This document shows positions 1,133 through 15,210 of a stretch of 64,000 nucleotides of DNA, one piece after another. A program made the translations under genes and the position numbers. Numbering within the stretch: the first letter of the stretch is position 1; the number at the start of each line of letters is the position of its first letter. Source of the stretch: a virus (taxonomy: Duplodnaviria > Caudoviricetes); the IMG/VR virus record IMGVR_UViG_3300042465_005116, positions 128,001 through 192,000 of that record; one strand, given 5' to 3'. Below the pieces are notes generated by a model. That model was given only the letters and a program-made list of their open reading frames with translations. It was not told the origin of the DNA and searched no databases.

Positions 1133-1160
1133 ATCTATAAATATGGATAACTGAAAAATA

Positions 1161-1560: not shown

Positions 1561-2676
1561 TTAATGTGAATCTTCTACATTATGTTTTTCTGCAAAGATT
1601 AAATAATCTGGGTTAATAACTTTTGCAATCTTTTGTCTTTCGCCGGTTTGGTGTTTGATTACAATTCCTTCCTCTGGTACTTTTGTATTTGGAATAAAAT
1701 TATTGAATGTGTATTTATCTTGTACTTCTTGTGACCAACTTCCGTAGTGTAAAATTTCTACATAAGGTAATTCCAAAATATCTTTAATCAGTAACCTAGC
1801 ATTAATAACACTTAAATACTCACTATTCTCTTTTACATCGAATCCTACGAACTTAATCTCCGTTAACCCATAATCATATCCCTTTTGGATTCCCGCTCCG
1901 TAAATCTCACCATATAAGGTAATACCATCACCAATCTCCGGCTCCATTGTATTACTCTTAACATAATCCCACAACTTATTTTTGATATCGTATTTCCTTT
2001 CAATATCATACCAAACATTGGTATCATAGAATCCTTGAGAATCAGAGCCTTTCTCTACATTATGTGAACCAACTACAAATTCATATTCAGTCCATTTGTT
2101 ACCAAACAACTTTTTAATTCTATCTAATATAGATAATTTAGTTTTCTTAACAATACCATAACGAGCATTTGTTCCGTGAATCTTACGAGTAATTTCCACA
2201 GTGTCATCTTCAGTAAACATTCCCGGTACATTTTTTAAGTTAGGAAACTTATAGTAGACATGAAAGTGTGGGTTATCTTGATAACGAATCTTTCTACCAC
2301 TTGCTAATTGAACCATTTTAACTGGTGGTTCATATTTGTAAATACCTAAATAATCCATCATATCATCACCTTCACTAACGATTGGTGTTAACGTATATGG
2401 AATAATTAAAGACTCACTATAAACTCCTCTTAACTTAACAGTTCTAACCCTACCACCATTACGAAGATAATTGGTTACTCCTAATTTTTCGGATAAATCA
2501 AATGGAATTACCGCATCGGTTGTTGCACATATTACTAACTCACCAACATTATGAGCATCTTTTTTTACTATACAATTCCAACCACCAACTACTGCTAATT
2601 CAATATTATCAGCACCATCAATAGGTTTAATTTCATTTATTTTTGCCACATAGCAAACTGAATTATTATTTTCCAT
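1561..2676 (-). CDS. ATP-dependent RNA ligase (Rnl2/DRB0094-like)
   Basis: Nucleotidyltransferase motifs KIHG (I), YGEIYG (III), FVGFDV (IIIa), EGIVIK (IV), KVINPDY (V); likely start MENNNSVCYVAK at 2676. Confidence 0.85.
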   Translation of the reverse strand: MENNNSVCYVAKINEIKPIDGADNIELAVVGGWNCIVKKDAHNVGELVICATTDAVIPFDLSEKLGVTNYLRNGGRVRTVKLRGVYSESLIIPYTLTPIVSEGDDMMDYLGIYKYEPPVKMVQLASGRKIRYQDNPHFHVYYKFPNLKNVPGMFTEDDTVEITRKIHGTNARYGIVKKTKLSILDRIKKLFGNKWTEYEFVVGSHNVEKGSDSQGFYDTNVWYDIERKYDIKNKLWDYVKSNTMEPEIGDGITLYGEIYGAGIQKGYDYGLTEIKFVGFDVKENSEYLSVINARLLIKDILELPYVEILHYGSWSQEVQDKYTFNNFIPNTKVPEEGIVIKHQTGERQKIAKVINPDYLIFAEKHNVEDSH

Positions 2677-2677
2677 A

Positions 2678-2974
2678 TTATTTATTTTTAAATTGTTCAA
2701 ACCATTCTTTAAATGATAATTTACATTCAATTCCATCAGATACATTTGCTTTCCAGCAAGCCATAAATGATTCTGCCATATCTTCCTCACTATACATTCT
2801 TTCTTTAGATTTAACACCCACTCTAAATCCACTCCAAAAAATATTGGCTTCACGATTTAAATCTGATAGATTAGATTCTTTTTCAGTATCCTCAACCCAA
2901 TTTTCATACAATCCCAAATTCTCATCATATCTCATCATGTCAATGAGGTGTTGTTTTTGTTCTTCTTTTTTCAT
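2678..2974 (-). CDS. hypothetical protein
   Basis: 98-aa ORF abutting the ligase start. Confidence 0.6.
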   Translation of the reverse strand: MKKEEQKQHLIDMMRYDENLGLYENWVEDTEKESNLSDLNREANIFWSGFRVGVKSKERMYSEEDMAESFMACWKANVSDGIECKLSFKEWFEQFKNK

Positions 2975-3018
2975 AACTTTTCTATTTCTTAAAGGTTTCG
3001 TCGTAGTATTGTGTTCCT

Positions 3019-3531
3019 TTATAATTTAATCTCAAAACGATTTTTCATTTGTTCTAACTTATCAGCAGGAACTCCATGTTGATTTACTCCACCATGTCTA
3101 TTCTCTACTATAATAGTGAATACCATATAACCATACTTTTCAGCTAACTTAAAATATTCTTCCATCTCCCATTCTTGAGTAAATGTATTTGATACTACAA
3201 TCTCTGGATAGAATTGTGGATTGACTTCGTTATCTTTCATACGAATTTCGACTTGTTCTTTACACCACTTATGTGCATCTTTTATTTTAGAACCATCAAA
3301 ATTATAGTTTCCTTCTTTATCATAAAAGAATTTATCTGCTTCACAAATTGCGTAATCATTCCAAATGAATCCGGCTAATGTTGATTTACCACTTCCTGGT
3401 AATCCCCTTACTAATGTTAATACTTTTGGTATCATATATTTTATTTCTTGTTTATCAATAAACTCTTTTATAGCTTGTCGTTTTTCATCATTGAATACAT
3501 CTTCCAATTTAATTTCTTGTTTAGTTTCCAT
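3019..3531 (-). CDS. P-loop polynucleotide kinase-like protein (AAA_33)
   Basis: Walker A GLPGSGKS, EADKFF, VVSNTFTQEWEM, ENRHGGVNQHGVP; alternative start at 3435. Confidence 0.8.
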   Translation of the reverse strand: METKQEIKLEDVFNDEKRQAIKEFIDKQEIKYMIPKVLTLVRGLPGSGKSTLAGFIWNDYAICEADKFFYDKEGNYNFDGSKIKDAHKWCKEQVEIRMKDNEVNPQFYPEIVVSNTFTQEWEMEEYFKLAEKYGYMVFTIIVENRHGGVNQHGVPADKLEQMKNRFEIKL

Positions 3532-3537
3532 ACCATT

Positions 3538-4191
3538 TTATCTATAATTTTCAACTATTTCGTGGTGGTCAAACACAAACATACTTTTGATTGGTTGTTT
3601 ATTCATCAATCTTAATATCTCACTCATTTCAATTGGATACAATTCGTTTCCATCACATCCCACATCCATCATTTTACCCGAACCAATTCGTTTATCAGCC
3701 GGAAAGTGAACGTGTCCATGCAAATGGATAGCTCCCCTAGCCATATTATCCCAACTTGCTATTGGAAAGTGCATTAGAGCGAATCTTTGTTCTCCCATTA
3801 AAGGAGTCCCTACATTCCACTTAACAACTAAGTTTAAGTATTTGTTTACGGAACTAAATAACTTTTGACAACCTTCTTTATCACTTTCAATGTGATGGTC
3901 GTGGTTACCGGTAATGATGTGAACATTTTTACAAAAAATGCTATCTCTGAATTTTTGTATTTGTTCGAATCCTCCAAAACTCCAATCACCTAAATGGAAA
4001 AGGATATCATCCTGTTCAACCTTTTCGTTGATGTTAGCAATAAGGTGTGAGTTCATTTGTTCCAATGATATGAATTCTCTACACGTTACGGGGTCTGACC
4101 ATTGGGTTGTAGATGAACATATATTAGCATGGTTGTAGTGGGTATCACTTGTGAACCATAACCTTTGTCCTTTGTTTAGATTTAATTTCAT
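3538..4191 (-). CDS. calcineurin-like metallophosphoesterase
   Basis: SDTHYNH, HLGD, GNHD, HLHGHVH motifs. Confidence 0.85.
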   Translation of the reverse strand: MKLNLNKGQRLWFTSDTHYNHANICSSTTQWSDPVTCREFISLEQMNSHLIANINEKVEQDDILFHLGDWSFGGFEQIQKFRDSIFCKNVHIITGNHDHHIESDKEGCQKLFSSVNKYLNLVVKWNVGTPLMGEQRFALMHFPIASWDNMARGAIHLHGHVHFPADKRIGSGKMMDVGCDGNELYPIEMSEILRLMNKQPIKSMFVFDHHEIVENYR

Positions 4192-4207
4192 AACCTTTTC
4201 TTATAAC

Positions 4208-4239
4208 CAAATATACAAAAAAAACCTCACATTACCAAA
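4208..4239 (-). promoter_or_regulatory. Bacteroidota-type sigma-A promoter for the RNA-repair operon
   Basis: TTTG-N20-TATATTTG. Confidence 0.75.
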
Positions 4240-4262
4240 TAATTTATGAGGTTTTTTTATAG

Positions 4263-4336
4263 TGGACCAGATAGGATTCGAACCTATGACCTCAACATTA
4301 TGAGTGTTTTGCTCTAACCAACTGAGCTACAAGTCC
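4263..4336 (-). tRNA. tRNA (CAT), probably Ile2 (lysidine) or elongator Met
   Basis: Cloverleaf, loop CTCATAA, TTCGAAT T-loop, A73. Confidence 0.85.
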
Positions 4337-4385
4337 ATTATCGTTTAATCTAACGATAAAATCTGATATCGTTTCTTTCAACGAT

Positions 4386-4418
4386 AAAAAATAAGCAGGT
4401 GTGGAATCACCTACTTAT
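4386..4418 (-). terminator. intrinsic terminator
   Basis: ATAAGTAGGTG/CACCTGCTTAT hairpin followed by a T-run. Confidence 0.6.
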
Positions 4419-4474
4419 ATAGTGAATGAGAAACATATGAATCTCTTGCGGCTATATCACCAAAGCCCATTAGG

Positions 4475-4588
4475 TGCCGGAGGAAGGATTGGTTACCTAC
4501 ACGATTTCCTTACGGAGTAATCAACTTTTTACAAAGTCACGTCTCAAGGTTTACTACCCAAAGGGAATGCTCTTTCCGCCACTCCGGC
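4475..4588 (-). ncRNA. tRNA-Leu-like RNA lacking an anticodon loop
   Basis: Perfect 7-bp acceptor GCCGGAG/CTCCGGC plus A73; 35-nt D-loop; ACTTT-GTAA-AAAGT anticodon arm; long variable arm; degenerate T-loop. Confidence 0.6.
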
Positions 4589-4604
4589 ATATATCTTTTT
4601 TTTG

Positions 4605-4678
4605 TGGAGGTGATAGGAGTCGAACCTACTACCCTCTGCGTGCAAGGCAGATGCTCTAGCCAAATGAGCTACACCCCC
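4605..4678 (-). tRNA. tRNA-Ala(TGC)
   Basis: Cloverleaf, G3:U70, loop CTTGCAC. Confidence 0.95.
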
Positions 4679-4792
4679 CCAATTAATGTAATGTCTGTAC
4701 GGTTTGTATCTTATCCACACTTTTATTGTGTTTCATTAGTTTCCATTTCATACTTAGCGTCCGTTCCGTCATTCTTTCGAATCATTACATCG

Positions 4793-4878
4793 TACCAGAG
4801 GTGGGAGTCGAACCCACACGAGCGATTTATGCTCAACAGATTTTAAGTCTGTCATGTCTACCATTCCATCACTCCGGC
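4793..4878 (-). tRNA. tRNA-Leu(TAA)
   Basis: Class II cloverleaf, loop CTTAAAA. Confidence 0.95.
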
Positions 4879-4894
4879 ATTTATTCTAATTATC

Positions 4895-5329
4895 CTAATT
4901 TAGTTTACTTAATATTACCCCATTAAGTTTAGTATGATTATCATCTGGATTTATTAATATATCGATTTTATTTTTCCATCGCGGATTCATTAAATCCCTA
5001 ACGTAGTAAACTCCATTGTATTTTCCAGCATTTGACACTCTTACTTTTTCACCAAATTTAAATTTCTTTTTTATATCTCTACTTACTGCAATCACTCTAT
5101 GTTTTTTAGGATTATCCTCATCTAATTCAAAGCCACTCGCCGTTTCTAACGGAGTATCATCAGTTTGTAAAGGGTCAATTGTATATGTAGTCATCGTAAC
5201 AACAAATTTCTTAATTTCCTTAACAACCTCTTCCTTTACCATAGTTTCGATTTTGAATGGATTGGGTGGGGTTACATTTGATGGTAGGATTACCGCAGTA
5301 ATTAATAATATCAATATTAATCTTTTCAT
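4895..5329 (-). CDS. 3D (Asp-Asp-Asp) domain cell-wall protein with N-terminal signal/anchor
   Basis: TTYT...QTDDTPLETASG, IAVSRD, VRD...IDIL pattern. Confidence 0.75.
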   Translation of the reverse strand: MKRLILILLITAVILPSNVTPPNPFKIETMVKEEVVKEIKKFVVTMTTYTIDPLQTDDTPLETASGFELDEDNPKKHRVIAVSRDIKKKFKFGEKVRVSNAGKYNGVYYVRDLMNPRWKNKIDILINPDDNHTKLNGVILSKLN

Positions 5330-5368
5330 AATTTACATTTATGGTTAATAATAACTATTACACTTTTG

Positions 5369-5442
5369 TGATTCGGAAAGGATTCGAACCTTTGGCCTAT
5401 TCATTAGAAGTGAATTGCTCTATCCAACTGAGCTACCGAACC
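5369..5442 (-). tRNA. tRNA-Arg(TCT)
   Basis: Cloverleaf, loop CTTCTAA. Confidence 0.95.
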
Positions 5443-5447
5443 AAATC

Positions 5448-5612
5448 GTTGTTTCAACTTGCAAGTTTACTCTTAACATCTCTTTCTCTACAACGTCTGA
5501 ATTTAATCAACATTTGTAGTCCGAATGTAGCTTCTGGGTAATTACTCCAATGCTTCTATGTAACTCTATATAACTTACTTTGTTACTAAGTGTGTTAAGT
5601 GTATGAAACAAC
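5448..5612 (-). ncRNA. candidate 165-nt structured RNA between tRNA-Asp and tRNA-Arg
   Basis: Terminal 9-bp stem GTTGTTTCA/TGAAACAAC continued by TACACTTAACA/TGTTAAGAGTA; internal hairpins. Confidence 0.45.
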
Positions 5613-5615
5613 TTG

Positions 5616-5689
5616 CGGAATGTATGGGACTCGAACCCATGACCTCATCCGTGACAGGGATGCATTCTAACCAACTGAACTAACACTCC
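5616..5689 (-). tRNA. tRNA-Asp(GTC)
   Basis: Cloverleaf, loop CTGTCAC, G73. Confidence 0.95.
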
Positions 5690-5694
5690 AAATG

Positions 5695-5767
5695 AGCCTC
5701 CTGTCGGATTCGAACCAACGACCCCTTCATTACAAGTGAAGTGCTCTACCAACTGAGCTAAGGAGGC
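5695..5767 (-). tRNA. tRNA-Thr(TGT)
   Basis: Cloverleaf, loop CTTGTAA. Confidence 0.95.
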
Positions 5768-5855
5768 GTTTGATAGGTGACCCTCCTATCGTGAAACTAT
5801 ACATCGTTTCTTTTCTTTATAGAACTCTATTCAGAGAACTGCTGGAACATTTTTG

Positions 5856-5927
5856 TACTCCCAACGGGATTCGAACCCGTATTACTACCGTGAAAGGGTA
5901 GTGACCTAACCATTAGTCGATAGGAGC
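5856..5927 (-). tRNA. tRNA-Glu(TTC)
   Basis: Cloverleaf, loop CTTTCAC. Confidence 0.95.
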
Positions 5928-5946
5928 ATATAATTTTATAACAATG

Positions 5947-5978
5947 TAAAGATACGAAGAATATTCCACATATCCAAA
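5947..5978 (-). promoter_or_regulatory. internal sigma-A-type promoter in the tRNA array
   Basis: TTTG-N20-TATCTTTA. Confidence 0.7.
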
Positions 5979-5979
5979 T

Positions 5980-6441
5980 TTAATTGTGTATTTTTACTAA
6001 GTGGTCAGCAGCATAAGTTGCTATTGGCCCTAATGATTTATATCTTACTGAATACCCCATACCTTCAACCATACCCACTGCTTGTCTAAACACTTCGTTA
6101 GATTTAAAGCGTGGGTCTGGGTTCAAGTCAATATCAATCCACTTAGGTTTTGGAATACCAGCCTCGCGTAATTCTTCGGCAGTTTCAATTGCAAACCAAA
6201 CTTCTTGTAATAATCTAACTGAACGGATTCTTTCTCTTTCACTATTCCATCTTCTATACAATACATGTGCACCCTTTCCTTTTCTATATAAGGCAACTAC
6301 GATTGCATAAATAGTTTTGTTACCTGAATTTTGTGAATCACAACCAATTAAGATTTCTGCATCGGTATTCGTAATCATATATTCTTTGATATATGAAATC
6401 AATTCCACTTCTTCTGCCGTATACAATTTTTTATAAACCAT
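5980..6441 (-). CDS. RNase H-like protein (YkuK/DUF458 family)
   Basis: ILIGCDSQ, LLQEVWFAIETAE, IDIDLN, AADHLVK acidic motifs. Confidence 0.75.
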   Translation of the reverse strand: MVYKKLYTAEEVELISYIKEYMITNTDAEILIGCDSQNSGNKTIYAIVVALYRKGKGAHVLYRRWNSERERIRSVRLLQEVWFAIETAEELREAGIPKPKWIDIDLNPDPRFKSNEVFRQAVGMVEGMGYSVRYKSLGPIATYAADHLVKIHN

Positions 6442-6461
6442 AATTTTACCTTTTTATTTTG

Positions 6462-6536
6462 TACCCATAGTAGGACTCGAACCTACAATTGTGTGGTGTC
6501 TAAAGCCACTGCGTATTCCAATTCCGCCATACGGGT
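6462..6536 (-). tRNA. tRNA-Leu(TAG) with short variable region
   Basis: Leu-type D-arm GGCGGAATTGGAATACGC, loop TTTAGAC, 6-nt variable region. Confidence 0.85.
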
Positions 6537-6545
6537 ATATTTCAG

Positions 6546-6631
6546 CAGAGAGTGAGGGGCTCGAACCCTCGCGGCTTTAACACCCTAACGATTTAGCAAA
6601 CCGTCCCCTTCACCAACTTGGGTAACTCTCT
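6546..6631 (-). tRNA. tRNA-Ser(GCT)
   Basis: Class II cloverleaf, loop TTGCTAA, G73. Confidence 0.95.
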
Positions 6632-6633
6632 AT

Positions 6634-6710
6634 TGGGGTGATTAATGGGATTCGAACCCATACTATCAGTACCACAAACTGACGTGCTAACCATTAACAC
6701 TATAAACACC
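6634..6710 (-). tRNA. tRNA-His(GTG)
   Basis: G-1:C73 pair, loop TTGTGGT, encoded CCA. Confidence 0.95.
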
Positions 6711-6715
6711 ATATG

Positions 6716-6786
6716 TTGCGTGTTTGAGGTTTGAACTCAATTGGTCATCCTTATGAGAGATAACTCTTTTCCACTAAGCCACGCAA
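6716..6786 (-). tRNA. atypical tRNA (CAT), probable elongator Met
   Basis: Normal anticodon arm (CTCATAA) and T-arm, but the acceptor TTGCGTG/CACGCAA lacks the 8-9 linker. Confidence 0.6.
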
Positions 6787-6790
6787 TGTG

Positions 6791-6862
6791 AGGCGGGTAT
6801 TGGATTCGAACCAATGTTAAAGGTTTTGCAGACCTCCTCCTAACCACTCGAGACAACTCGCC
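6791..6862 (-). tRNA. tRNA-Cys(GCA)
   Basis: Cloverleaf, loop CTGCAAA, U73. Confidence 0.95.
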
Positions 6863-6927
6863 ATTATTTGTTGTTCACTTTTTTTGTTTGTTCACCGATA
6901 GTGAACACTCTAAATTTGTGAACATTG

Positions 6928-7000
6928 TAGTTCCATAAGGACTCGAACCCTAACTTTTTCATCCGTAGTGAAAGGTGCTATCCAATTACACCATAGAACT
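6928..7000 (-). tRNA. tRNA-Arg(ACG)
   Basis: Cloverleaf, loop CTACGGA. Confidence 0.95.
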
Positions 7001-7006
7001 ATTTTG

Positions 7007-7077
7007 CACCCCCTGAAAGATTCGAACTTTCATCTGCGGTTTTGGAGACCGATATGCTACCATTGCACCAAAGAGAT
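7007..7077 (-). tRNA. tRNA-Trp(CCA)
   Basis: Cloverleaf, loop CTCCAAA, G73, wobble-rich acceptor. Confidence 0.9.
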
Positions 7078-7139
7078 GTATTATTAGTGTTCCAAAACTC
7101 TATTTTTTTGTTAGATTTGGAACACCAATAACCAAATTG

Positions 7140-7213
7140 TTGGTAATGCGGGATTCGAACCTGCCACCTTCTCGGTATCAGCGAGATGCTCTAACCAAAT
7201 GAGCTAATTACCA
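7140..7213 (-). tRNA. tRNA-Ile(GAT)
   Basis: Cloverleaf, loop CTGATAC. Confidence 0.95.
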
Positions 7214-7219
7214 ATGTTG

Positions 7220-7295
7220 TCGGATAAGCAGGATTCGAACCTGCGTGCTCCACATCCCAAATGTGGCGAGATAGACCTGACTCCTCTACTATCCG
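7220..7295 (-). tRNA. tRNA-Pro(TGG)
   Basis: Cloverleaf, C1:G72, loop TTTGGGA. Confidence 0.95.
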
Positions 7296-7301
7296 TTATT
7301 G

Positions 7302-7375
7302 TGAACCCGAATGGACTCGAACCATTGACTCCCTCATTAAAAGTGAGGTGCTCTAACCAACTGAGCTACGAGTTC
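7302..7375 (-). tRNA. tRNA-Lys(TTT)
   Basis: Cloverleaf, loop CTTTTAA. Confidence 0.95.
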
Positions 7376-7381
7376 ATTCTG

Positions 7382-7454
7382 TGGAGAAAGTTGGTTACGC
7401 TCCAACTCCTGTGGATTTTCAGTCCACTGCTTCTACTAAGTTAGCTTCTTCTCC
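7382..7454 (-). tRNA. tRNA-Phe(GAA) with non-canonical T-loop
   Basis: Loop CTGAAAA; T-arm GTTGG-AGCGTAA-CCAAC. Confidence 0.85.
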
Positions 7455-7461
7455 TATTAAG

Positions 7462-7543
7462 TGCCTGCAGATGGACTCGAACCACCGAACTCCGAAGAGA
7501 GGAGATTTACAGTCTCCAGCAATTGCCACTATGCGATACAGGC
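7462..7543 (-). tRNA. tRNA-Tyr(GTA)
   Basis: Class II cloverleaf, loop CTGTAAA. Confidence 0.95.
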
Positions 7544-7589
7544 TAATTGAGTTGTATTCCAAATTCGAATTTGGAATAATTTCAAATTG

Positions 7590-7663
7590 TAGAAGATATA
7601 GGATTCGAACCTATGACCCTTTGGATGTAAACCAAATGCTCTAACCAACTGAGCTAATCTTCT
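7590..7663 (-). tRNA. tRNA-Val(TAC)
   Basis: Cloverleaf, loop TTTACAT. Confidence 0.95.
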
Positions 7664-7669
7664 ATGTTG

Positions 7670-7741
7670 TTACTCGAATAGGATTCGAACCTATACTACA
7701 TCAGTCAAAGTGAGGTATGCTAACCATTACACCATCGAGCA
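7670..7741 (-). tRNA. tRNA-Gln(TTG)
   Basis: Cloverleaf, U1:A72, loop CTTTGAC. Confidence 0.9.
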
Positions 7742-7748
7742 ATTTATG

Positions 7749-7820
7749 AGCGGATGATAGGAATCGAACCTACGTCTCCTACTTGGAAGGAAGGAGTAAT
7801 AACCATTATACGACATCCGC
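7749..7820 (-). tRNA. tRNA-Gly(TCC)
   Basis: Cloverleaf, loop CTTCCAA, U73. Confidence 0.95.
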
Positions 7821-7832
7821 ATGTCAAAGAAC
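7821..7832 (-). promoter_or_regulatory. boxA-like antitermination element
   Basis: GTTCTTTGACAT in the Asn-Gly spacer; resembles rrn boxA. Confidence 0.5.
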
Positions 7833-7838
7833 CAATTG

Positions 7839-7910
7839 AGGGAAGGGAGAATTTCGAAATCTCGACCTGATGATTAACAGTCATCTGCTCTGCCTCTGAG
7901 CTACCATCCC
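7839..7910 (-). tRNA. tRNA-Asn(GTT)
   Basis: Cloverleaf, loop CTGTTAA. Confidence 0.95.
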
Positions 7911-7917
7911 ATAAACG

Positions 7918-7951
7918 AAAAAACCCTTAACTTTTTTATCAGTTAAGGGTT
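7918..7951 (-). terminator. intrinsic terminator (candidate attenuator) directly upstream of tRNA-Asn
   Basis: 11-bp stem AACCCTTAACT/AGTTAAGGGTT, 8-nt loop, T-run. Confidence 0.75.
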
Positions 7952-7981
7952 CTTAAAATATTGTTATAAAATTTTTACATT

Positions 7982-8104
7982 CTATCCACGTTTTACATCC
8001 CTTAACTTACTTCTATCCTCAATCATATTGAAGACACGATTGCCACCCCAAGCACATTTCTGTGTCGGTAGATAACTAAGCGTATGTATTGTTAAAGTTG
8101 CCAT
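7982..8104 (-). CDS. candidate leader peptide MATLTIHTLSYLPTQKCAWGGNRVFNMIEDRSKLRDVKRG (40 aa)
   Basis: ATG 8104 to TAG 7982; overlaps an anti-terminator-compatible AGTTAAGGG at 7999-8007. Confidence 0.6.
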   Translation of the reverse strand: MATLTIHTLSYLPTQKCAWGGNRVFNMIEDRSKLRDVKRG

Positions 8105-8242
8105 TGTGTATAAGTATATTAAAAACTAATTTATGTTTGTTTTTGTGTTAATAAAATAAAAAAAAGTAACTCATCTTCAATATGCACCATCCATGTCATG
8201 CACTGGTTGACAAAAGCCTCGATAAATTACTTAGTATTTTTT

Positions 8243-9127
8243 AAAAAAATCTGGATGAGAATACTCCATCTTATGAACCAGCTTTATAAGGGTTATTGGT
8301 TACCTTAATTTCCACTACCTTTTGAGTAGTACCGATTCAATGTGGGTAAGTAATGCCTACCAATCATAAAGTTACAACCTACTCTCTTTTTACTCCGCCA
8401 CTTCGAATCTGCCGACCCGATTCACATCTCGCGATGCTAGAAGTTTTTCGAAAGAATCACATTTACCTTGAGAGTATTTGTGGCAGTGAACGACTCACTA
8501 CTATGTACACACCTTTCACTTGCAACTGGTAACCACTTTTTCTTTTATTTTTATTTGATTTTCACCATTGAAAGTAAAAGTTTTGGTTTGTAGAAGAATT
8601 CAAGTAGTGGATTACCACTAGCTCCGTTCCATTTTGAAGAACGGAATACTATACTACTCGATACGATATCCCTATCGTCATATTTTAAGTCTACTTCATA
8701 TCTAAACCTTTGGTAAAGTAAAGATAAGGATAATAACAACACCACTTGTACATCATCATACCTTTCGATTTTAAGTAAACTTTCATATTGAATCACGCAA
8801 TGATATGGAGAGATTAAGTCCGTACTTCTTGCAATAACTCTATGGATTATTCTTATTGGTGTCCCCACCTCAACTGAACTTCTACCTAGCCCAGTCATTA
8901 AACCATTTCACTACGGAGTTACCCTCACTAATCAGGTCTAATGATATTCCACTTGCATACTCAAGCTCCATTCCTTTCGGTCTGAAACCGCAAATTAATT
9001 AACCAACTAATTCACTTTATCCTACTTTCGTAGTTTATTTAACCACCATATGCGGCGGGTATGTACTATGTACCACAAGGATACTATGTACAATATGTTT
9101 CGATAATTTAAAGAACTTTTTTTTGTT
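8243..9127 (-). ncRNA. large ornate non-coding RNA, GOLLD/ROOL-like
   Basis: ~880 nt without a credible ORF, between a promoter (9132-9163) and a hairpin plus T7; many GNRA hairpins; next to tRNAs. Family not verified. Confidence 0.6.
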
Positions 9128-9131
9128 AAGT

Positions 9132-9163
9132 CAAAGATACGAAATCTTTTTCACTTTTCCAAA
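9132..9163 (-). promoter_or_regulatory. sigma-A-type promoter of the large ncRNA
   Basis: TTTG-N20-TATCTTTG. Confidence 0.8.
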
Positions 9164-9237
9164 TTTATTTTAAACTTTTTTTTGTTATGTCTAATACCGA
9201 GTATCTTTCATCGCCTATAAGTTTAGAACTAACTTTG

Positions 9238-9269
9238 TAAAGATACGAAAACATTTTCACATTTCCAAA
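9238..9269 (-). promoter_or_regulatory. sigma-A-type promoter (tandem)
   Basis: TTTG-N20-TATCTTTA. Confidence 0.7.
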
Positions 9270-9341
9270 TCTTTTTTTAATTATTTTTTGTGATATTATA
9301 TATAAGTATATAAAAATATACCAAACGTAAAATAATCATTG

Positions 9342-9413
9342 TAGCGGGTGAAGGATTCGAACCTCCGACCTATAGGTTATGAGCCTACCGAGCTACCACT
9401 GCTCTAACCCGCA
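9342..9413 (-). tRNA. initiator tRNA-fMet(CAT)
   Basis: Unpaired 1:72 (T:T), GAGCAGTGGTAGCTC D-arm, loop CTCATAA. Confidence 0.9.
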
Positions 9414-9434
9414 ATATAATTTTAAAGAACATAA

Positions 9435-9540
9435 AACAAAGTAAGATAATGATATCCGGCGTTATAGTTTACCACTTATGGTTGGACTTCACACATTCGG
9501 TTTTATTAGATGTTGGCTTCAACCACTATCTTATTTTGTT
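9435..9540 (-). ncRNA. candidate 106-nt structured RNA upstream of tRNA-fMet
   Basis: 16 of 17 terminal positions pair; begins just after the promoter at 9545-9576. Confidence 0.45.
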
Positions 9541-9544
9541 AAGT

Positions 9545-9576
9545 CAAAGATACGAAAACATTTTCATATTTCCAAA
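9545..9576 (-). promoter_or_regulatory. sigma-A-type promoter
   Basis: TTTG-N20-TATCTTTG. Confidence 0.8.
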
Positions 9577-9589
9577 TCTTTTTTAATAT

Positions 9590-10036
9590 TTATTTTACTT
9601 TGTAAGATAATCCCAATCCTAATGTAAAATCATCACCAATTAAATTACCAATTCCCCATAAATTTATAACACTACTTGGTCTTAGTGGATTGTACATTAT
9701 AAGAAAATTTGGTTTATTACCATTAAGTGTAGGTTGTAATCCAAACCCAATAATCGCCTTATCCTCTTTTACTTGTCTAAGAACACCAAACTTCATATTA
9801 TCAGATACATTTCCTGTTTTGGTATTAACTCCCGGAGGAATTACTATTCCACCATTTTGTCCACCATATTCATCATACGGAAGTCCCGCATAAAATCCCC
9901 ATCCTTTTTTCATAAATCCACCTGTAATGTATCCATCAGATGGTCCACCCTTGCGGGTAGCGGTTATAAACCACTCTTGCCCTTTTGCATTAATACTTAT
10001 TCCGAGTATCAAAGCCATCACTAATAATTTTTTCAT
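9590..10036 (-). CDS. secreted protein, possible small outer-membrane beta-barrel
   Basis: Signal peptide MKKLLVMALILGISINAKG; Gly/aromatic beta-strand pattern, C-terminal LGLGLSYKVK. Confidence 0.6.
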   Translation of the reverse strand: MKKLLVMALILGISINAKGQEWFITATRKGGPSDGYITGGFMKKGWGFYAGLPYDEYGGQNGGIVIPPGVNTKTGNVSDNMKFGVLRQVKEDKAIIGFGLQPTLNGNKPNFLIMYNPLRPSSVINLWGIGNLIGDDFTLGLGLSYKVK

Positions 10037-10347
10037 AGTGCCTTTATGCTCTTTGTTTTTTCAAGAGAATCCTCTCTTATCCATTTTTGTTTTAACTTAT
10101 CTATTTTTTCAATTTTTAGGATTTTACCTTTAAGTGAGACAATCTCCTTCGTAACCTTTTCGGTACGAACCGTACGTGCAGCGAAATCTTCTTCGGTGAT
10201 TTCAATCAATTCTTTTTTTCGATTAAGAACTGATATTTCTTTTTGGATTTTTTCTATCGCTTTACCATCATTAATCAATGAGGGGTCGATAGAATTACCA
10301 ATACTATTAAAAAATAATAATATGGGTAAGGTAAGTTTTTCTAACAT
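10033..10347 (-). CDS. hypothetical coiled-coil protein with N-terminal hydrophobic segment
   Basis: 104-aa ORF. Confidence 0.55.
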   Translation of the reverse strand: MLEKLTLPILLFFNSIGNSIDPSLINDGKAIEKIQKEISVLNRKKELIEITEEDFAARTVRTEKVTKEIVSLKGKILKIEKIDKLKQKWIREDSLEKTKSIKAL

Positions 10348-10430
10348 TTGTAATCAATAGTTAAAAGTGTAACACATATAAATACATTATTATATATTTT
10401 TAATTAAATATATAACAATAATTTATTAAG

Positions 10431-10806
10431 TGGTGGAGGTGGAGGGAGTCGAACCCTCGTCCAAATACGGATTCAATAAACATCATTCACAAGCTTAGTT
10501 AGTTTTTCTTAACTAACAAAATATTCGGTTGGTTCTTCACCATCGGCAACCGATAAACAATGGGTGATTCGATTTTGGGTTCAATCACTTTTCCACCTTT
10601 GTACACATTCTTTTTAAAGTCCCACGATGTGTGCGGGAGGGATTAGGCTGCTATAGCGTAATCAGCACCTACGAAAGACATTACATCTTCGAAGGTCATT
10701 GTAGATAATTCTACGTCGTTTATTGTTCGATAGGTATTTACGGATTTCCATCTAACCCGGCTTGCAACTTACCAACTCATCGTACCTGTCAAAACCAGGC
10801 ACCCCC
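10431..10806 (-). ncRNA. ssrA: tmRNA
   Basis: 5' GGGGGTG...TTTTGACAG, 3' GGTTCGACTCCCTCCACCTCCACCA, G3:U70, tag ORF ending YAIAA*. Confidence 0.93.
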
Positions 10807-10808
10807 AT

Positions 10809-11495
10809 TTATTTTTTATTCAAAGAACGTTTAATTAAATTCTGAACCTTTTCATTTCTCAAATCAATGTACAACATTATAGTTGCTCTATATTCATTTG
10901 AGTAATTATACACATTATGATAATGATAAGAATTAAAATAATATGCTTTACCTACTTCTAATCTTTTTCTAAATATATTCGTAAACCAATCAGGTCTATG
11001 AAATCGCTTCCACCATTTAAATTCAGCCGAATCTACTACACAATATTCAAACTTTTCTGGTACTATAATTGGAATTTGAATAGTTAGTTCCCATTCTTCT
11101 TGTCCATGTTCCAATACGTGCGAGTGCCAAACTAAAGATTGTTTAGGTGCAATTCGCATCACCCTAGCTCTACTATCTAATTGGTTACCACTAATGTTTG
11201 CACATATCTCATACATATAAGGTATTGTGGATTCCAATTCGGTTTTCTGAAAGTTATATTGCTCAGTACCATCTTCGTACATATCTTTATACAAACTTCC
11301 ATCAGAACTAATCAATGAAATACCACTCCATGCTTTACGATACTTTCTTCGTACTTGCCAAAAGTTAGTTCTATAATCTTTGAATTTGTATTTGTTTTTT
11401 AACAATCCATATTCATCAATTAGTTTATCTAAATCAATATCAATGTCCAATTCTAAAAATGGAATACTTTTTAGTTGTTGTATAAGTTCATTCAT
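10809..11495 (-). CDS. 2OG-Fe(II)/cupin oxygenase, Asp/Asn beta-hydroxylase-like
   Basis: RARVMRIAP...WHSH, HNVYNYSNEYR; likely start MNELIQ (the ORF-track extension overlaps an RNA). Confidence 0.7.
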   Translation of the reverse strand: MNELIQQLKSIPFLELDIDIDLDKLIDEYGLLKNKYKFKDYRTNFWQVRRKYRKAWSGISLISSDGSLYKDMYEDGTEQYNFQKTELESTIPYMYEICANISGNQLDSRARVMRIAPKQSLVWHSHVLEHGQEEWELTIQIPIIVPEKFEYCVVDSAEFKWWKRFHRPDWFTNIFRKRLEVGKAYYFNSYHYHNVYNYSNEYRATIMLYIDLRNEKVQNLIKRSLNKK

Positions 11496-11507
11496 ATTAA
11501 TTAATTG

Positions 11508-11676
11508 CTGTAAGAGGAGGATTCGAACCATCCACGATGCGATTCAGTAAGTAACACTTTCTCCGGCCGGATGGTGGTCTACCCCATATTACTTACCTAT
11601 TTCGTTCTCACCACCCCCGAGACAGGAGGGCTTGTCTACCCGGTCATACTGAGACAACCTTTTCCAACACCTTACA
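11508..11676 (-). ncRNA. 169-nt tRNA-like RNA with GTC anticodon and expanded D-loop and variable arm
   Basis: Acceptor TGTAAGG/TCTTACA plus G73, D-stem TTG/CAA, CCCTC-CTGTCTC-GGGGG arm, ~80-nt variable arm, GGTTCGAATCC T-loop. Confidence 0.65.
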
Positions 11677-11772
11677 ATATATGAACTAACTCACTGGAAA
11701 CCTTATAATTGAATTCAATCAACTTATGGGTTAAGTACTCCGTTTATGTTAGTTCCTCGTACTCCAAGTTTG

Positions 11773-11857
11773 CAGAGAGTTAGGGATTCGAACCCCAGAT
11801 ACCTTTCAGTATGCCAGTTTTCAAGACTGGTGCCATCAACCACTCGGCCAACTCTCT
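11773..11857 (-). tRNA. tRNA-Ser(TGA)
   Basis: Class II cloverleaf, loop CTTGAAA, G73. Confidence 0.95.
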
Positions 11858-11865
11858 GTTTAATA

Positions 11866-12135
11866 TTATTGAATATGAGTTTCTTCGTTTCGAAGTGCTC
11901 TCACATCTAATGTAATATTTGATTGTCTTCTTCTTGCTTCTTCAGCTTCTTTATACCAACGAATCCAAGTTAAGGAAACATCAATTGGTGCAAGAACCCA
12001 TGCCATTACCACTACCATAATAGTATCCAATTCAGGAGAACCACCGATGGGGTCATTGCTGTATCTTTTATCTAAATTTTTAAATAATTGATAGAAACAA
12101 TAAAGAACACAAATAATGTAATACGTTAAAAACAT
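11866..12135 (-). CDS. hypothetical membrane protein
   Basis: Two hydrophobic segments. Confidence 0.55.
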   Translation of the reverse strand: MFLTYYIICVLYCFYQLFKNLDKRYSNDPIGGSPELDTIMVVVMAWVLAPIDVSLTWIRWYKEAEEARRRQSNITLDVRALRNEETHIQ

Positions 12136-12149
12136 ATATTAAATTTTAA

Positions 12150-12350
12150 TTAAACGCCTGAAGTTTTTACATCAACTAAAAAGTTTTTTAATCTTTCTAA
12201 TTTTTCAATCGTTGTAGTTGTTCCTGTAATTGGATTCAGTTCTAAAATAATATCATCTAATGATGCTGCAGTTACTAATAACGCATCGTCTTTAGAATTT
12301 AAATAGTTGTCTGAAATTCTGTACTTTTTGCAAATCTCTTGTAAGTTCAT
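12150..12350 (-). CDS. hypothetical protein
   Basis: Likely start MNLQEICKK at 12350. Confidence 0.55.
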   Translation of the reverse strand: MNLQEICKKYRISDNYLNSKDDALLVTAASLDDIILELNPITGTTTTIEKLERLKNFLVDVKTSGV

Positions 12351-12367
12351 ATTATTGTTTTTTTGTT

Positions 12368-13510
12368 TTAAATTAAAGCCCTTGTTTGTTTTGATTCTAA
12401 ATGCCAAAAATTATGTATTATATGTTGTCTATTACCAATCATTTTTAATTGTTTTAATAATACATTATATAGTGGATGTGATTCTTCTTGAACTGAACGG
12501 TCTTTTAACCATTCTTTTGTTTGATGATTCCAATCTTGTATTGCTCTAAATGTAATTGTATATCCATTTTCAGGACTCCACTTTCCATATATATCCTCAA
12601 TCATATTTACAAAATCATTCATTTCACGTACATTATGGTCTTGAACTACGAATGAAAAATTTCTATTATTAAATTTTAAGGTAGAATGATATTTTAAATT
12701 AGCCATTAAAGTATCCCAATTCCCATTTAACCTTACTTTATTTTCATATGTTTCTTTAGTTGCTGCATCAATTGATATTTCATATTCACGAACATATGGA
12801 TGAATTGGTTTAACCGATTCCCACATTTCCTGTGTCCACATATTTCCGTTTGAAACTATATAAATTTGTTTCAATTTTGGATATCGTTTGTAATCAAATG
12901 TTTGCATAAACTTTCTAAATACATTTGAATAAAATGGGTCACCACTACCTGTAATATGAATCATCTCAACCTCATTACTAAATTGTTCATTAATATCTTT
13001 TAAAATATTATCAACAAATTTATCTTTACGATTTGGTATAGTATCTAATCTACAAGATGGACATTTCAAATTACATGCGTAATCAAAATTAAAATAAATT
13101 AATTTTGGAAATAATTTCCATTCACTATCAGTTTCAGAAAGATTATATTTTTTAAAAAATTCTTCTCTCTTATAAAAGTATCCAAAATATACTGATTGTC
13201 CATAGTCCGATTCAAACTCATTTAATAATACCTTTTCATCAGTATTAATAAGTTTAGATAAAAATGGGCACTTAGTTTTTGAACAATATTTATATGAACC
13301 ATCTAAGATTCCTTCTCTTACCTTTGTATTAATATCATTAAACCAAACATCTTTTAATTCTTTAGTTTCACCGGGATTTAAATGAGACCAATCTTCAAAT
13401 GGAATATCCATCCAATCTGGACAACAACTCCAAGTCGAATTATGGAATACCATAAAATCTTCAAATGGTGCTCTACAAATATAGTTTTTTAAATTAACCT
13501 TCTCACTCAT
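12368..13510 (-). CDS. radical SAM protein with N-terminal Cys-rich (SPASM/twitch-like) domain
   Basis: CNLKCPSC (CxxxCxxC), ITGSGDPF, SIDAATKETYEN; N-terminal C...CC...C...C. Confidence 0.85.
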   Translation of the reverse strand: MSEKVNLKNYICRAPFEDFMVFHNSTWSCCPDWMDIPFEDWSHLNPGETKELKDVWFNDINTKVREGILDGSYKYCSKTKCPFLSKLINTDEKVLLNEFESDYGQSVYFGYFYKREEFFKKYNLSETDSEWKLFPKLIYFNFDYACNLKCPSCRLDTIPNRKDKFVDNILKDINEQFSNEVEMIHITGSGDPFYSNVFRKFMQTFDYKRYPKLKQIYIVSNGNMWTQEMWESVKPIHPYVREYEISIDAATKETYENKVRLNGNWDTLMANLKYHSTLKFNNRNFSFVVQDHNVREMNDFVNMIEDIYGKWSPENGYTITFRAIQDWNHQTKEWLKDRSVQEESHPLYNVLLKQLKMIGNRQHIIHNFWHLESKQTRALI

Positions 13511-13533
13511 ATATGTATATATATTAAGTTATT

Positions 13534-14205
13534 TTATTTTGAGTATTCTTCTAATTCTTCTTCGTACCAACCATTATACATTTCTCTAATTTCTAATGGA
13601 ACTCCTTTTCCAAAGTCATTACTTTCCCAACCATATTGTAAGTATGCTTGAATCTCATCTTTAATAACCATTTCAGTATATCCCATTTCTAATAAATTCT
13701 TTTCGAATATATTATAATTTTCTATGTGTATTAATGCAGTAACTGCATCTGCAGTTGCTTTATAGTTGGGATTAGTGTAATATAATCCATGACAAACTTC
13801 GTGTTTAAAGGTATCCCCTTCAGTATTACCTGCCCCAATAATATAACCATCGGCATCATCACCATTCAATTCGTATAACGTATGAATAATACTTTCCATT
13901 ACATCATCGTAATCAGTATACCTATCAGTTAGGGTATCATAACAAGTGTAGGCAATTTCTAATGGAACATTAAATCCACTCCAATCACTTCCATATGTAA
14001 ACCCTTTACCATATTCATTGGTATACCATTTCATATATTCAGAAAAACTAAAATCCTTATTACCTCTAAATGCTGGATTTGGGGATTCGTAGAATTCTTG
14101 TATTCTTAAAAAGGTCATTGCCCTATCATATGAATCTTCAATGATAACTGCAAAGATTTTTGGTTTAACCTTTTCTATTTTATAATTTATATTTATCATC
14201 CGCAA
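13534..14205 (-). CDS. hypothetical protein with HExxH motif (zincin-like)
   Basis: KHEVCHGLYY ... DEIQAY. Confidence 0.6.
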   Translation of the reverse strand: MRMININYKIEKVKPKIFAVIIEDSYDRAMTFLRIQEFYESPNPAFRGNKDFSFSEYMKWYTNEYGKGFTYGSDWSGFNVPLEIAYTCYDTLTDRYTDYDDVMESIIHTLYELNGDDADGYIIGAGNTEGDTFKHEVCHGLYYTNPNYKATADAVTALIHIENYNIFEKNLLEMGYTEMVIKDEIQAYLQYGWESNDFGKGVPLEIREMYNGWYEEELEEYSK

Positions 14206-14450
14206 TCTACTTTGGTGCTTGAAACTTTGAATTTAGTGATTATAGAATCACCCTTATATAGAAGATACGATTGTTCGTGCATGAAACATGCTTTCATTTC
14301 ATTATCATCTATATGAACCGATACTATTGGAACTTCGTTAGCAAATAAAGTATCATCCTCTGAATCATAGTATTCTCTATGGGTTATAGTGTACTCATCA
14401 AATTCAGATGAGATATCACTTATCCACTTTTTTAAATCCTTTATTTTCAT
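14196..14450 (-). CDS. hypothetical protein
   Basis: 84-aa ORF. Confidence 0.55.
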   Translation of the reverse strand: MKIKDLKKWISDISSEFDEYTITHREYYDSEDDTLFANEVPIVSVHIDDNEMKACFMHEQSYLLYKGDSIITKFKVSSTKVDCG

Positions 14451-14467
14451 ATTCTATCTTTTAAATT

Positions 14468-14713
14468 TTAATTATGTTTCATTCCTTTACAAACACCATA
14501 GCCTTGTCGTTGTGATAAACGAATAAGATTTTCTGCGATATGTTTGGGAACAATTTGAATACTGTTACCTGTCTTATGGTTGGTAATAGGAACTCCCCCA
14601 ACTCTTTCAGTAGTGGAACAATTAGTGCAAGACCTATATCCATACTTTGTAAATCGTAAAAGTGGCATATCGCCTCCACATTTAATACAAGGTGTTAATT
14701 CTAATACGTTCAT
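14468..14713 (-). CDS. small zinc-ribbon protein
   Basis: CIKC...CTNC; directly behind the promoter at 14732. Confidence 0.65.
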   Translation of the reverse strand: MNVLELTPCIKCGGDMPLLRFTKYGYRSCTNCSTTERVGGVPITNHKTGNSIQIVPKHIAENLIRLSQRQGYGVCKGMKHN

Positions 14714-14731
14714 ATTTTAAATTTTATAAAG

Positions 14732-15189: not shown

Positions 15190-15210
15190 AACGATTCTGA
15201 GCGGGCAAGG

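Follow-up and report, generated by a model that had tools for sequence, protein, structure and literature searches.

A minimal, non-redundant tRNA set with tmRNA in the stable-RNA island of an uncultured lake jumbo phage

The DNA analysed here, referred to as the window, comprises 64,000 nucleotides (nt; positions 128,001-192,000 of record IMGVR_UViG_3300042465_005116) of an uncultured freshwater (lake) jumbo phage, and positions 4262-11857 of the window are the stable-RNA island of this phage. The island encodes 25 transfer RNAs (tRNAs) and one transfer-messenger RNA (tmRNA), and the anticodons of the set correspond exactly to the 25-species minimum, initiator included, that was derived experimentally for the standard genetic code in tobacco plastids (Alkatib et al. 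2012, PMC3499367). This minimal repertoire is a trait of the phage lineage and is kept while individual genes turn over. The reading preferred here, considered likely though held with clear reserve, is that the island is a self-supplied decoding kit for failing host tRNAs, linked to RNA repair and ribosome rescue.

tRNA and tmRNA genes were called in the window, to which the tRNA counts apply, using ARAGORN and Rfam at gathering thresholds (29 bits for tRNA). ARAGORN returned 24 tRNAs and one tmRNA, all on the minus strand within 4262-11857 and none elsewhere in the 64 kb, and Rfam recovered the identical 24 tRNAs at 44.9-73.8 bits. The 25th tRNA is an atypical CAT species at 6716-6785, which was missed by ARAGORN and lies below the Rfam cut-off; with this gene backed by compensatory changes in relatives, the count of 25 tRNAs plus tmRNA given in the original prediction, made from the letters alone, stands, and every anticodon listed there is correct. 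The window contains 23 distinct anticodons, CAT occurring three times and all others once, so that the absence of redundancy, likewise predicted, holds within the window. Each of the seven four-codon boxes is served by a tRNA with uridine at the wobble position 34 (U34; Ala-TGC, Gly-TCC, Leu-TAG, Pro-TGG, Ser-TGA, Thr-TGT and Val-TAC), with no G34 or C34 isoacceptor in the window, while arginine is served by ACG (CGN) and TCT (AGR) and every two-codon box by one tRNA. Sixteen of the genes form an uninterrupted run from 7910 down to 6461 (Table 1). As all seven four-codon boxes are U34-only and the repertoire recurs in 34 related loci, the set is not a product of chance.

The three CAT tRNAs were assigned using the discriminators of Silva et al. 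2006 (PMC1635315), according to which A3/G3 with T70/C70 rules out either kind of tRNA-Met and is diagnostic of tRNA-Ile(CAT), a species in which C4-G69 and C5-G68 are common, and A11-T24 with G12-C23 is the mark of the initiator. The gene at 9341-9413 carries A11-T24 and G12-C23 together with a U1.U72 mismatch and A29G30G31/C39C40T41, the AGG/CCT variant of the initiator signature R29G30G31/Y39C40Y41; that at 4262-4336 has A3-T70, C4-G69 and U5.G68, most members of its family having C5-G68; and that at 6716-6785 has C3-G70, which fits Met, and an acceptor stem resembling that of the initiator. By these marks they were assigned as the predicted fMet, Ile2 and elongator Met tRNAs, respectively, which are the three identities that had been put forward as inferred labels, and a pattern scan for CAT-type tRNAs over positions 1-16000 returned exactly three. 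Typing by similarity to E. coli genes was tried and set aside as ambiguous, with 4262-4336 matching tRNA-Ile at 77% over its full length and elongator tRNA-Met at 91% over its body; because of the latter identity, the Ile2 call rests on the acceptor stem.

The gene at 6716-6785 lies between tRNA-His and tRNA-Cys. Folded alone, it shows the acceptor stem and the anticodon and T arms, whereas a D stem is not clearly formed, and its minimum free energy z-score of -1.6 is unremarkable. A pseudogene or a chance match (22.9 bits in Rfam) was considered and rejected, since identical sequence is found at the same Cys/His position in L001, L002 and L013 and compensatory changes keep the pairing in other relatives: in L008 acceptor pair G4-C69 is replaced by A4-T69 and a T-stem T-A by A-T, and in L004 the anticodon-stem pair A28-T42 is replaced by T28-A42. 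Among 17 distinct members of this odd CAT family, compensatory double changes occur in 8 of the 10 predicted anticodon- and T-arm pairs, and the loop CUCAUAA with its closing pair U31.G39 is invariant; these covariation figures cover the anticodon and T arms, the variable 5'/D-arm part having been misaligned by MAFFT. On this comparative sequence evidence, 6716-6785 is a real tRNA gene. Two paralogous odd CAT tRNAs were observed in each of L004 (~9664-9745 and 10533-10603) and L006 (~9713-9794 and 10533-10603), one of the window type, missed by ARAGORN and Rfam, and the other with GGTCTCATAAGCC. The extra paralogue brings the true tRNA count of these two loci to 26, and one of the pair may have a role other than elongator Met.

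Assuming U34 superwobble, inosine formed from A34 and lysidine on Ile2, the set would read 60 of the 61 sense codons, the exception being CGG, which is what had been claimed (all sense codons except possibly CGG) and follows from established wobble rules. In its anticodons it has the composition of the plastid-derived minimum, i.e. a single U34 tRNA per four-fold box, ACG and TCT for Arg, and three CAU species. For comparison, the 25 isotypes of the Plasmodium falciparum apicoplast are described as the lowest number in any known translation system, with 27 in JCVI-syn3.0 and 28 in the endosymbiont Nasuia (PMC12069591).

Codon usage was determined for 66 open reading frames (ORFs) of the window (14,194 codons). 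With 35 occurrences per 1000 codons and a share of 41% of Ile, ATA is a much-used codon, and for this reason the Ile2 tRNA matters. CGG was counted 14 times (1.0 per 1000 codons; in 11/66 ORFs) and makes up 7% of CGN, compared with 6-13% for the other NNG codons in their boxes. The check on CGG frequency suggested along with the original prediction therefore came out divided: the codon is rare but not specially avoided. Its decoding must fall to a host tRNA or, with low efficiency, to the ACG tRNA, as happens in plastids.

These figures bear on codon-usage compensation, the classical explanation of phage tRNAs (reviewed in PMC10264068), by which the tRNAs would supply the preferred A/T-ending codons of an AT-rich phage, poorly provided for by a host of another base composition, and completeness would be a by-product of a large genome. 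The phage is indeed AT-rich (~31-37% GC), A-ending codons are the commonest in five of the seven four-codon boxes and are fitted by U34 tRNAs, and the large share of ATA among Ile codons fits the Ile2 tRNA. However, Gly and Thr prefer T/C-ending codons (51% of Gly codons are GGT, and 59% of Thr codons are ACT or ACC) and are nevertheless served by a U34 tRNA alone; since G34 tRNAs would be better for this usage, codon tuning alone fails to explain the choice of U34. Moreover, every amino acid and every rare box (Cys, Trp, CGN) is covered once, no duplicates are provided for heavily used codons, the repertoire is constant despite gene exchange, and the island is linked to RNA-repair genes and to a leader ORF in which each of the 20 amino acids occurs. 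Compensation is therefore considered unlikely, and the evidence favours selection for a complete, economical decoder with RNA repair and ribosome rescue over codon tuning.

Stop-codon recoding was considered for the region at 33-38 kb, in which long ORFs are few, and no suppressor tRNA was found in the window by ARAGORN. tRNAs with a CTA anticodon (amber-suppressor type), none of which occurs in the window, were observed in L044 (12054-12128), L069 (12039-12113), L072 (3636-3708) and L049 (15023-15094), a hint that part of the clade may recode TAG or defend itself against recoding.

Relatives were found in IMG/VR by way of an RNase H-like marker protein encoded within the island (5980-6441; PF04308). 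The search yielded 101 related stretches, many of them on contigs of 160-334 kb and most with tRNA arrays around the marker, and repertoires were compared over the 34 related loci with at least 22 tRNAs. Tyr, both Arg, Val, Gly-TCC, Leu-TAG, Cys, Thr, Pro, Gln, Trp and His tRNAs were present in 34/34 loci; the extras were Gly-GCC (23 loci), Ile-TAT (7), Lys-CTT (3) and Arg-CCG (1). Loss of Gly-GCC in plastids has a severe phenotype, with near-white seedlings and strongly delayed greening (PMC3499367), and as it is also the commonest extra, the first relaxation of minimality falls where superwobble is costly. Relatives with Ile-TAT were examined for loss of one CAT family, as a test of which family is Ile2, and gave a mixed pattern, L021 and L022 being without an Ile2-type tRNA and L037, L040 and L044 keeping all three.

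Many redundant tRNAs elsewhere in the genome, the observation that would tell against a minimal set, were looked for in relatives by whole-record Rfam scans of G002, G003, G007 and G008 (near-complete relatives measure 274-324 kb). A single island of ~5-7 kb was found in each of G002 (287 kb, 100% complete; 25 tRNA matches, all at 158.1-165.2 kb), G003 (274 kb, 100% complete; 26 matches, all at 85.2-92.0 kb) and G007 (324 kb, 97% complete; 25 matches, all at 110.5-115.4 kb). The more distant relative G008 had 33 tRNA matches, four of them outside the island.

Between the window and its closest relative, L002, the marker protein is 99% identical, yet only some of the tRNAs are 100% identical (those for Arg-TCT, Leu-TAG, Cys, Trp, Val, Gly and Asn), and the values fall as low as 77% for Tyr, 74% for Gln and 66% for Phe. 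The window tRNA-Phe is closest (91%) to that of a distant relative, and tRNA-Tyr is identical to that of L013. Single genes are exchanged and the repertoire stays constant, which argues for selection on the set. The exchange of individual genes between lineages is also what speaks for a mobile or hitch-hiking module, in which the tRNA array and the GOLLD RNA of the island would spread among phages and replicons by recombination and be retained although the phage gains little; unrelated lineages, too, have tRNA arrays with GOLLD, Mycobacterium arrays being an example cited in a cryo-EM preprint. Such a module is very improbable, given that the repertoire is constant across relatives whose marker proteins are 55-99% identical, that compensatory stem changes indicate purifying selection, and that a dedicated, putatively regulatory leader is conserved.

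In >100 related phage stretches the marker gene is located within the tRNA island. Homologues are encoded in 735-kb uncultured phages and in KVP40-like vibriophages, the gene of KVP40 (L082; 5974-6504) lying ~5 kb from the tRNA cluster, and the PF04308 protein is a candidate tRNA-processing or RNA-turnover enzyme.

Some RNAs of the island have unusual forms. In tRNA-Phe(GAA) (7381-7454) the T loop is AGCGTAA, without TTC, and the D loop is without GG, so that the usual elbow contacts are jointly missing; this odd form, with a covarying T stem, was also observed in L018, L023, L026, L033, L034, L038 and L053, and the closest relative, L002, has a canonical tRNA-Phe. A long RNA with tRNA-like ends (4475-4588, minus strand; GCCGGAG...CTCCGGCACC) adjoins tRNA-Ala and was found in the closest relative only. 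A second, likewise with tRNA-like ends (~11508-11700, minus strand; ending in GGTTCGAATCC plus an acceptor strand), adjoins tRNA-Ser-TGA. Neither was called as a tRNA, and the count of decoding tRNAs is unchanged by them.

Upstream of the 16-tRNA run, a short leader ORF is followed by an intrinsic terminator (Table 1). Given the amino-acid composition of the phage, the occurrence of all 20 amino acids within 30 residues has a probability of P ~2e-4, and the leader is the only one of 125 window ORFs of 35-60 amino acids to contain all 20. It is conserved in L004, L006, L010, L012 and L013, with all 20 amino acids present in 6/6 sequences (window included) and the position of the Cys codon varying. 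A segment of the ORF repeats the 3' arm of the terminator and can pair with its 5' arm, and the three segments covary (TTAAGGG/CCCTTAA in the window and L006 vs TTAGAGG/CCTCTAA in the others). The two alternative hairpins are similarly stable (-17.2 vs -14.8 kcal/mol). Homologous all-20 leaders were found 59-211 nt upstream of tRNA runs in 21 other loci, and distant relatives have the same design in unrelated sequence (CCAGGGC/GCCCTGG; in L064 CCAGGA/TCCTGG). Short ORF, intrinsic terminator and exclusive antiterminator pairing with covariation are thus all present, and leader and terminator together have the predicted architecture of a leader-peptide attenuator, by which the 16-tRNA run is probably switched on by demand. 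A ribosome stalled in the leader because any one charged tRNA is short would leave the ORF segment free, the antiterminator would form, and transcription would read through into the tRNA genes. A literature search returned no precedent for an all-20 leader before tRNA genes. The wider proposal of a demand-regulated emergency translation kit, with the 25-tRNA core, a leader that would sense any shortage of charged tRNA, such as one caused by a host anticodon nuclease, and tmRNA, repair genes and GOLLD as backing, is put forward tentatively, our confidence in it falling a little short of even.

The tmRNA scores above its Rfam cut-off and has tRNA-like ends with CCA as well as a predicted tag frame. 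GOLLD, which was absent from the earlier reading, was detected inside the island (8252-8661), downstream of the initiator tRNA, and probably continues on its 5' side in the direction of position ~9127. It was found in 4/4 relatives searched; three have it within the run of tRNA genes, and in the fourth it lies between this run and tmRNA.

The sequence ends bear out the claim that only tRNA-His, which has G-1 as well, and tmRNA encode CCA in the window; the remaining tRNAs have C at position 74, mostly followed by AA. Over the clade, C74 was observed in 1310/1339 tRNAs, CAA being the commonest trailer (44%) and full CCA occurring in only 12%, and the C74/CAA trailer may be a conserved processing signal or a habit of the host. 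Templating of CCA is sporadic across the clade and follows no clear rule (His 44%, Ala 48% of distinct genes).

A scan of the window for the Bacteroidota-type promoter motif (TTTG-N18-22-TAnnTTTG) gave 9 matches vs 3.0 expected, and 0/100 shuffles reached 9. Megablast of the island against 50,697 phage records returned single-tRNA-sized matches only (crAss-like phages, Cellulophaga phages, T4-like coliphages) and no close isolated relative. Promoter-motif enrichment, tRNA genes without CCA (as in most tRNA genes of Bacteroidetes; PMC5143459) and nearest tRNA matches in phages of Bacteroidota together suggest, tentatively, that the host belongs to the Bacteroidota; the phage IscU-like protein (ESM Atlas) was uninformative as to the host. 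Four of the promoter-like sites on the minus strand (9545-9576, 9132-9163, 20605-20636 and 31066-31097) share a long consensus, TTTGGAAA..., then TTCGTAT[AC]TTTG, more extensive than the generic TTTG/TAnnTTTG motif, which suggests a phage-specific class of strong promoters.

Genes for a calcineurin-like phosphoesterase, a candidate polynucleotide kinase and an RNA ligase directly adjoin the island (Table 1). Compared with TIGR02306, the ligase (1561-2853) gave E 9.8e-26 and 90.4 bits, which is below the curated cut-off of 151. tRNA arrays with RNA-repair genes in jumbo phages have been read as a counter-measure to host tRNA attack (Iyer et al. 2021, PMC7824862), and experimental cases are described in which phage tRNAs defeat tRNA-targeting defences (PMC10264068, PMC11555353, PMC11464382). 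By the preferred reading, the island would keep every codon of the AT-rich phage genes translatable whatever befalls the host tRNA pool, which might be diluted or decay once the host is shut off, or be cut by defence nucleases that target tRNAs. Cut tRNAs would be healed and sealed by the adjoining phosphoesterase, kinase and RNA ligase, and stalled ribosomes would be released by tmRNA. Such a kit would not be autonomous, as host enzymes would have to process the tRNAs, add CCA, deaminate A34, lysidinylate Ile2 and charge the set. TilS, CCA-adding enzyme and SmpB were searched for in four relatives (CheckV completeness 97-100% for three and 79% for one) and none was found, so that maturation and trans-translation would rely on host enzymes.

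Completeness and conservation of the set would also fit a host-range insurance, in which a generic decoder frees the phage from differences between host tRNA pools with no attack on or loss of host tRNAs involved. This argument has been put forward for the Xanthomonas jumbo phage XacN1, whose 56 tRNAs cover all 20 amino acids and whose host range is wide (PMC5852040). Such an insurance is quite improbable here: the tight linkage with RNA healing and sealing enzymes and tmRNA would be left unexplained, and features that need host-specific enzymes (C4-G69 for TilS, no CCA) limit how generic the decoder is.

Several observations weigh against the decoding-kit reading. As TilS, CCA-adding enzyme and SmpB were not found in the four relatives searched, the set would be of no use in a host whose tRNA biogenesis is damaged. 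The sole elongator tRNA-Met candidate (6716-6785) is structurally odd and below the Rfam threshold. Additional tRNAs are present in several relatives (Gly-GCC, Ile-TAT, Lys-CTT, a second odd CAT tRNA), so that exact minimality is not under strict selection. For CGG there is no cognate tRNA, yet the codon is still used in 11/66 ORFs, with no special avoidance. The U34 tRNAs match preferred A-ending codons in five of the seven boxes, so that codon matching contributes. The original prediction of selection for wholesale replacement of the host tRNA pool rather than codon tuning thus survives in part: the complete, conserved set and the Gly and Thr usage bear out selection beyond codon tuning, whereas replacement as such and destruction of host tRNAs are hypothetical, and wholesale replacement is weakened by host-dependent maturation and the continued use of CGG.

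Further RNA-end-healing genes lie far from the island, namely those for a cREC_REC (cyclic-phosphate) domain protein overlapping a second calcineurin-like phosphoesterase (21679-22858) and, at 50883-51404, for a HAD_SAK_2 RNA-repair phosphatase. Other genes of the window are those for an AAA+ protease-like ATPase, an IscU/NifU scaffold, a ferredoxin and a ClpS-like adaptor (54495-55736 and 58194-58926; the ClpS-like gene was not mapped), which are auxiliary and unrelated to the tRNA set. Searches of Pfam, PHROG and NCBIfam gave no match for the ORFs at 9590-10036, 10033-10347, 13534-14205 and 206-1132, and unnamed PHROGs as the sole matches for the ORF at 4895-5329.

Table 1. Coordinates of RNA genes, regulatory sites and protein genes in and beside the island (window positions).
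Feature	Position	Strand	Evidence
ATP-dependent RNA ligase, DRB0094 type (OB domain + RNA_ligase)	1561-2853	-	phrog_968, E 2.2e-57
P-loop kinase (AAA_33), candidate polynucleotide kinase	3019-3531	-	E 3.1e-9
Calcineurin-like phosphoesterase, first of RNA-repair trio	3538-4191	-	Metallophos, E 2.2e-6
tRNA-Ile2 (CAT), predicted lysidine type	4262-4336	-	Rfam 67.7 bits; labelled Met by ARAGORN
tRNA-Ala (TGC)	4604-4678	-	ARAGORN, Rfam 65.7 bits
tRNA-Leu (TAA)	4792-4878	-	ARAGORN, Rfam 55.6 bits
tRNA-Arg (TCT)	5368-5442	-	ARAGORN, Rfam 72.9 bits
tRNA-Asp (GTC)	5615-5689	-	ARAGORN, Rfam 67.1 bits
tRNA-Thr (TGT)	5694-5767	-	ARAGORN, Rfam 71.5 bits
tRNA-Glu (TTC)	5855-5927	-	ARAGORN, Rfam 63.4 bits
RNase H-like protein (PF04308) within tRNA island	5980-6441	-	E 2.3e-20
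tRNA-Leu (TAG)	6461-6536	-	ARAGORN, Rfam 50.6 bits
tRNA-Ser (GCT)	6545-6631	-	ARAGORN, Rfam 52.7 bits
tRNA-His (GTG), encoded G-1 and 3' CCA	6634-6710	-	ARAGORN, Rfam
tRNA-Met (CAT), predicted elongator, atypical, reduced D arm	6716-6785	-	Rfam 22.9 bits (below cut-off); C3-G70; compensatory changes
tRNA-Cys (GCA)	6790-6862	-	ARAGORN, Rfam 44.9 bits
tRNA-Arg (ACG)	6927-7000	-	ARAGORN, Rfam 53.8 bits
tRNA-Trp (CCA)	7006-7077	-	ARAGORN, Rfam 56.5 bits
tRNA-Ile (GAT)	7139-7213	-	ARAGORN, Rfam 64.1 bits
tRNA-Pro (TGG)	7219-7295	-	ARAGORN, Rfam 55.4 bits
tRNA-Lys (TTT)	7301-7375	-	ARAGORN, Rfam 71.6 bits
tRNA-Phe (GAA), non-canonical T loop, D loop without GG	7381-7454	-	ARAGORN, Rfam 46 bits
tRNA-Tyr (GTA)	7461-7543	-	ARAGORN, Rfam 49.5 bits
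tRNA-Val (TAC)	7589-7663	-	ARAGORN, Rfam 73.8 bits
tRNA-Gln (TTG)	7669-7741	-	ARAGORN, Rfam 59 bits
tRNA-Gly (TCC)	7748-7820	-	ARAGORN, Rfam 61.9 bits
tRNA-Asn (GTT), first gene of 16-tRNA run	7838-7910	-	ARAGORN, Rfam 56 bits
Intrinsic terminator, 11-bp stem and T run	7918-7951	-	-14.8 kcal/mol; ends 7 nt before tRNA-Asn
40-codon leader ORF, candidate attenuator leader	7982-8104	-	all 20 amino acids in first 30 codons
GOLLD RNA, conserved 3' domain	8252-8661	-	RF02032, 264 bits (cut-off 150), model positions 1-416
Promoter-like site, Bacteroidota type (TTTG-N-TAnnTTTG), ahead of GOLLD	9132-9163	-	motif scan
tRNA-fMet (CAT), predicted initiator	9341-9413	-	ARAGORN, Rfam 65.2 bits
Promoter-like site ahead of tRNA-fMet	9545-9576	-	motif scan
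tmRNA, encoded CCA, predicted tag ...GADYAIAA	10431-10806	-	ARAGORN; RF00023, 111.5 bits (cut-off 47)
tRNA-Ser (TGA)	11772-11857	-	ARAGORN, Rfam 55.9 bits

Phage tRNA islands with repair genes, tmRNA and GOLLD are already known. The novelty lies in a clade whose repertoire is kept at exactly the theoretical minimum and is preceded by a probable sensor of decoding capacity. GOLLD env-38 was reported downstream of a Met-type tRNA, as in the window, where GOLLD lies inside the tRNA island; GOLLD itself is nothing new, and what is added here is its constant company with a minimal complete tRNA set and tmRNA in one clade. The repair genes resemble the T4 system, in which Pnkp and Rnl1 repair PrrC-cleaved tRNA-Lys, in that healing and sealing enzymes are encoded beside tRNA genes and phage tRNAs would replace damaged ones; unlike T4, the phage has its kinase and phosphatase on two proteins, and its ligase belongs to the DRB0094 type.

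Attenuator leaders of amino-acid operons (trp, his, leu, thr, pheA) are enriched in codons for a single amino acid or a small number of them and regulate genes of biosynthesis. The phage leader shares with them a short ORF predicted to be translated, an intrinsic terminator, an ORF-proximal segment that competes for the 5' arm of the terminator, and covariation; it differs in containing all 20 amino acids once or a few times and in preceding tRNA genes. If the island is a demand-regulated kit, its leader would be the first case of an attenuator sensing decoding capacity as a whole and governing tRNA genes, and set and leader together offer a testable model of a virus sensing and repairing failing decoding capacity.

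Among large-phage arrays (XacN1, PMC5852040; KVP40; T5; jumbo-phage groups averaging 18-22 tRNAs, PMC7824862) the clustered island, the RNA ligases, kinases and phosphoesterases and the proposed role against tRNA cleavage recur, and some of these arrays cover all 20 amino acids, as does the window. Known arrays are, in contrast, redundant or incomplete: KVP40 has separate Leu tRNAs for UUA and UUG, and Sf14 has 26 tRNAs for 19 amino acids (PMC12482277), whereas the set described here is the exact non-redundant minimum and is conserved as such. In a literature search no description of a phage tRNA set as an exact non-redundant minimum was found. The tRNAs of large phages are currently viewed as shielding translation from host attack, and the lineage sharpens that picture.

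The nearest likeness is to the plastid minimum (PMC3499367) and to the apicoplast (PMC12069591), with which the phage set has in common 25 species including the initiator, U34 superwobble, a single ACG tRNA and three CAU tRNAs with lysidine. A 25-species set is otherwise matched so far only by the apicoplast, the likeness being one of count and decoding logic, and AUA is heavily used in the phage as it is in minimal organellar sets. The clade would thus provide a natural, independently evolved test of the rules of minimal decoding (superwobble, one ACG tRNA for CGN, lysidine for AUA), shows which relaxations come first, Gly-GCC being added most often, and offers a compact, sequence-defined tRNA set for minimal or orthogonal translation systems. 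Organellar sets arose by genome reduction where no other source of tRNA exists, whereas the phage set is an addition to a cell that has a full tRNA pool.

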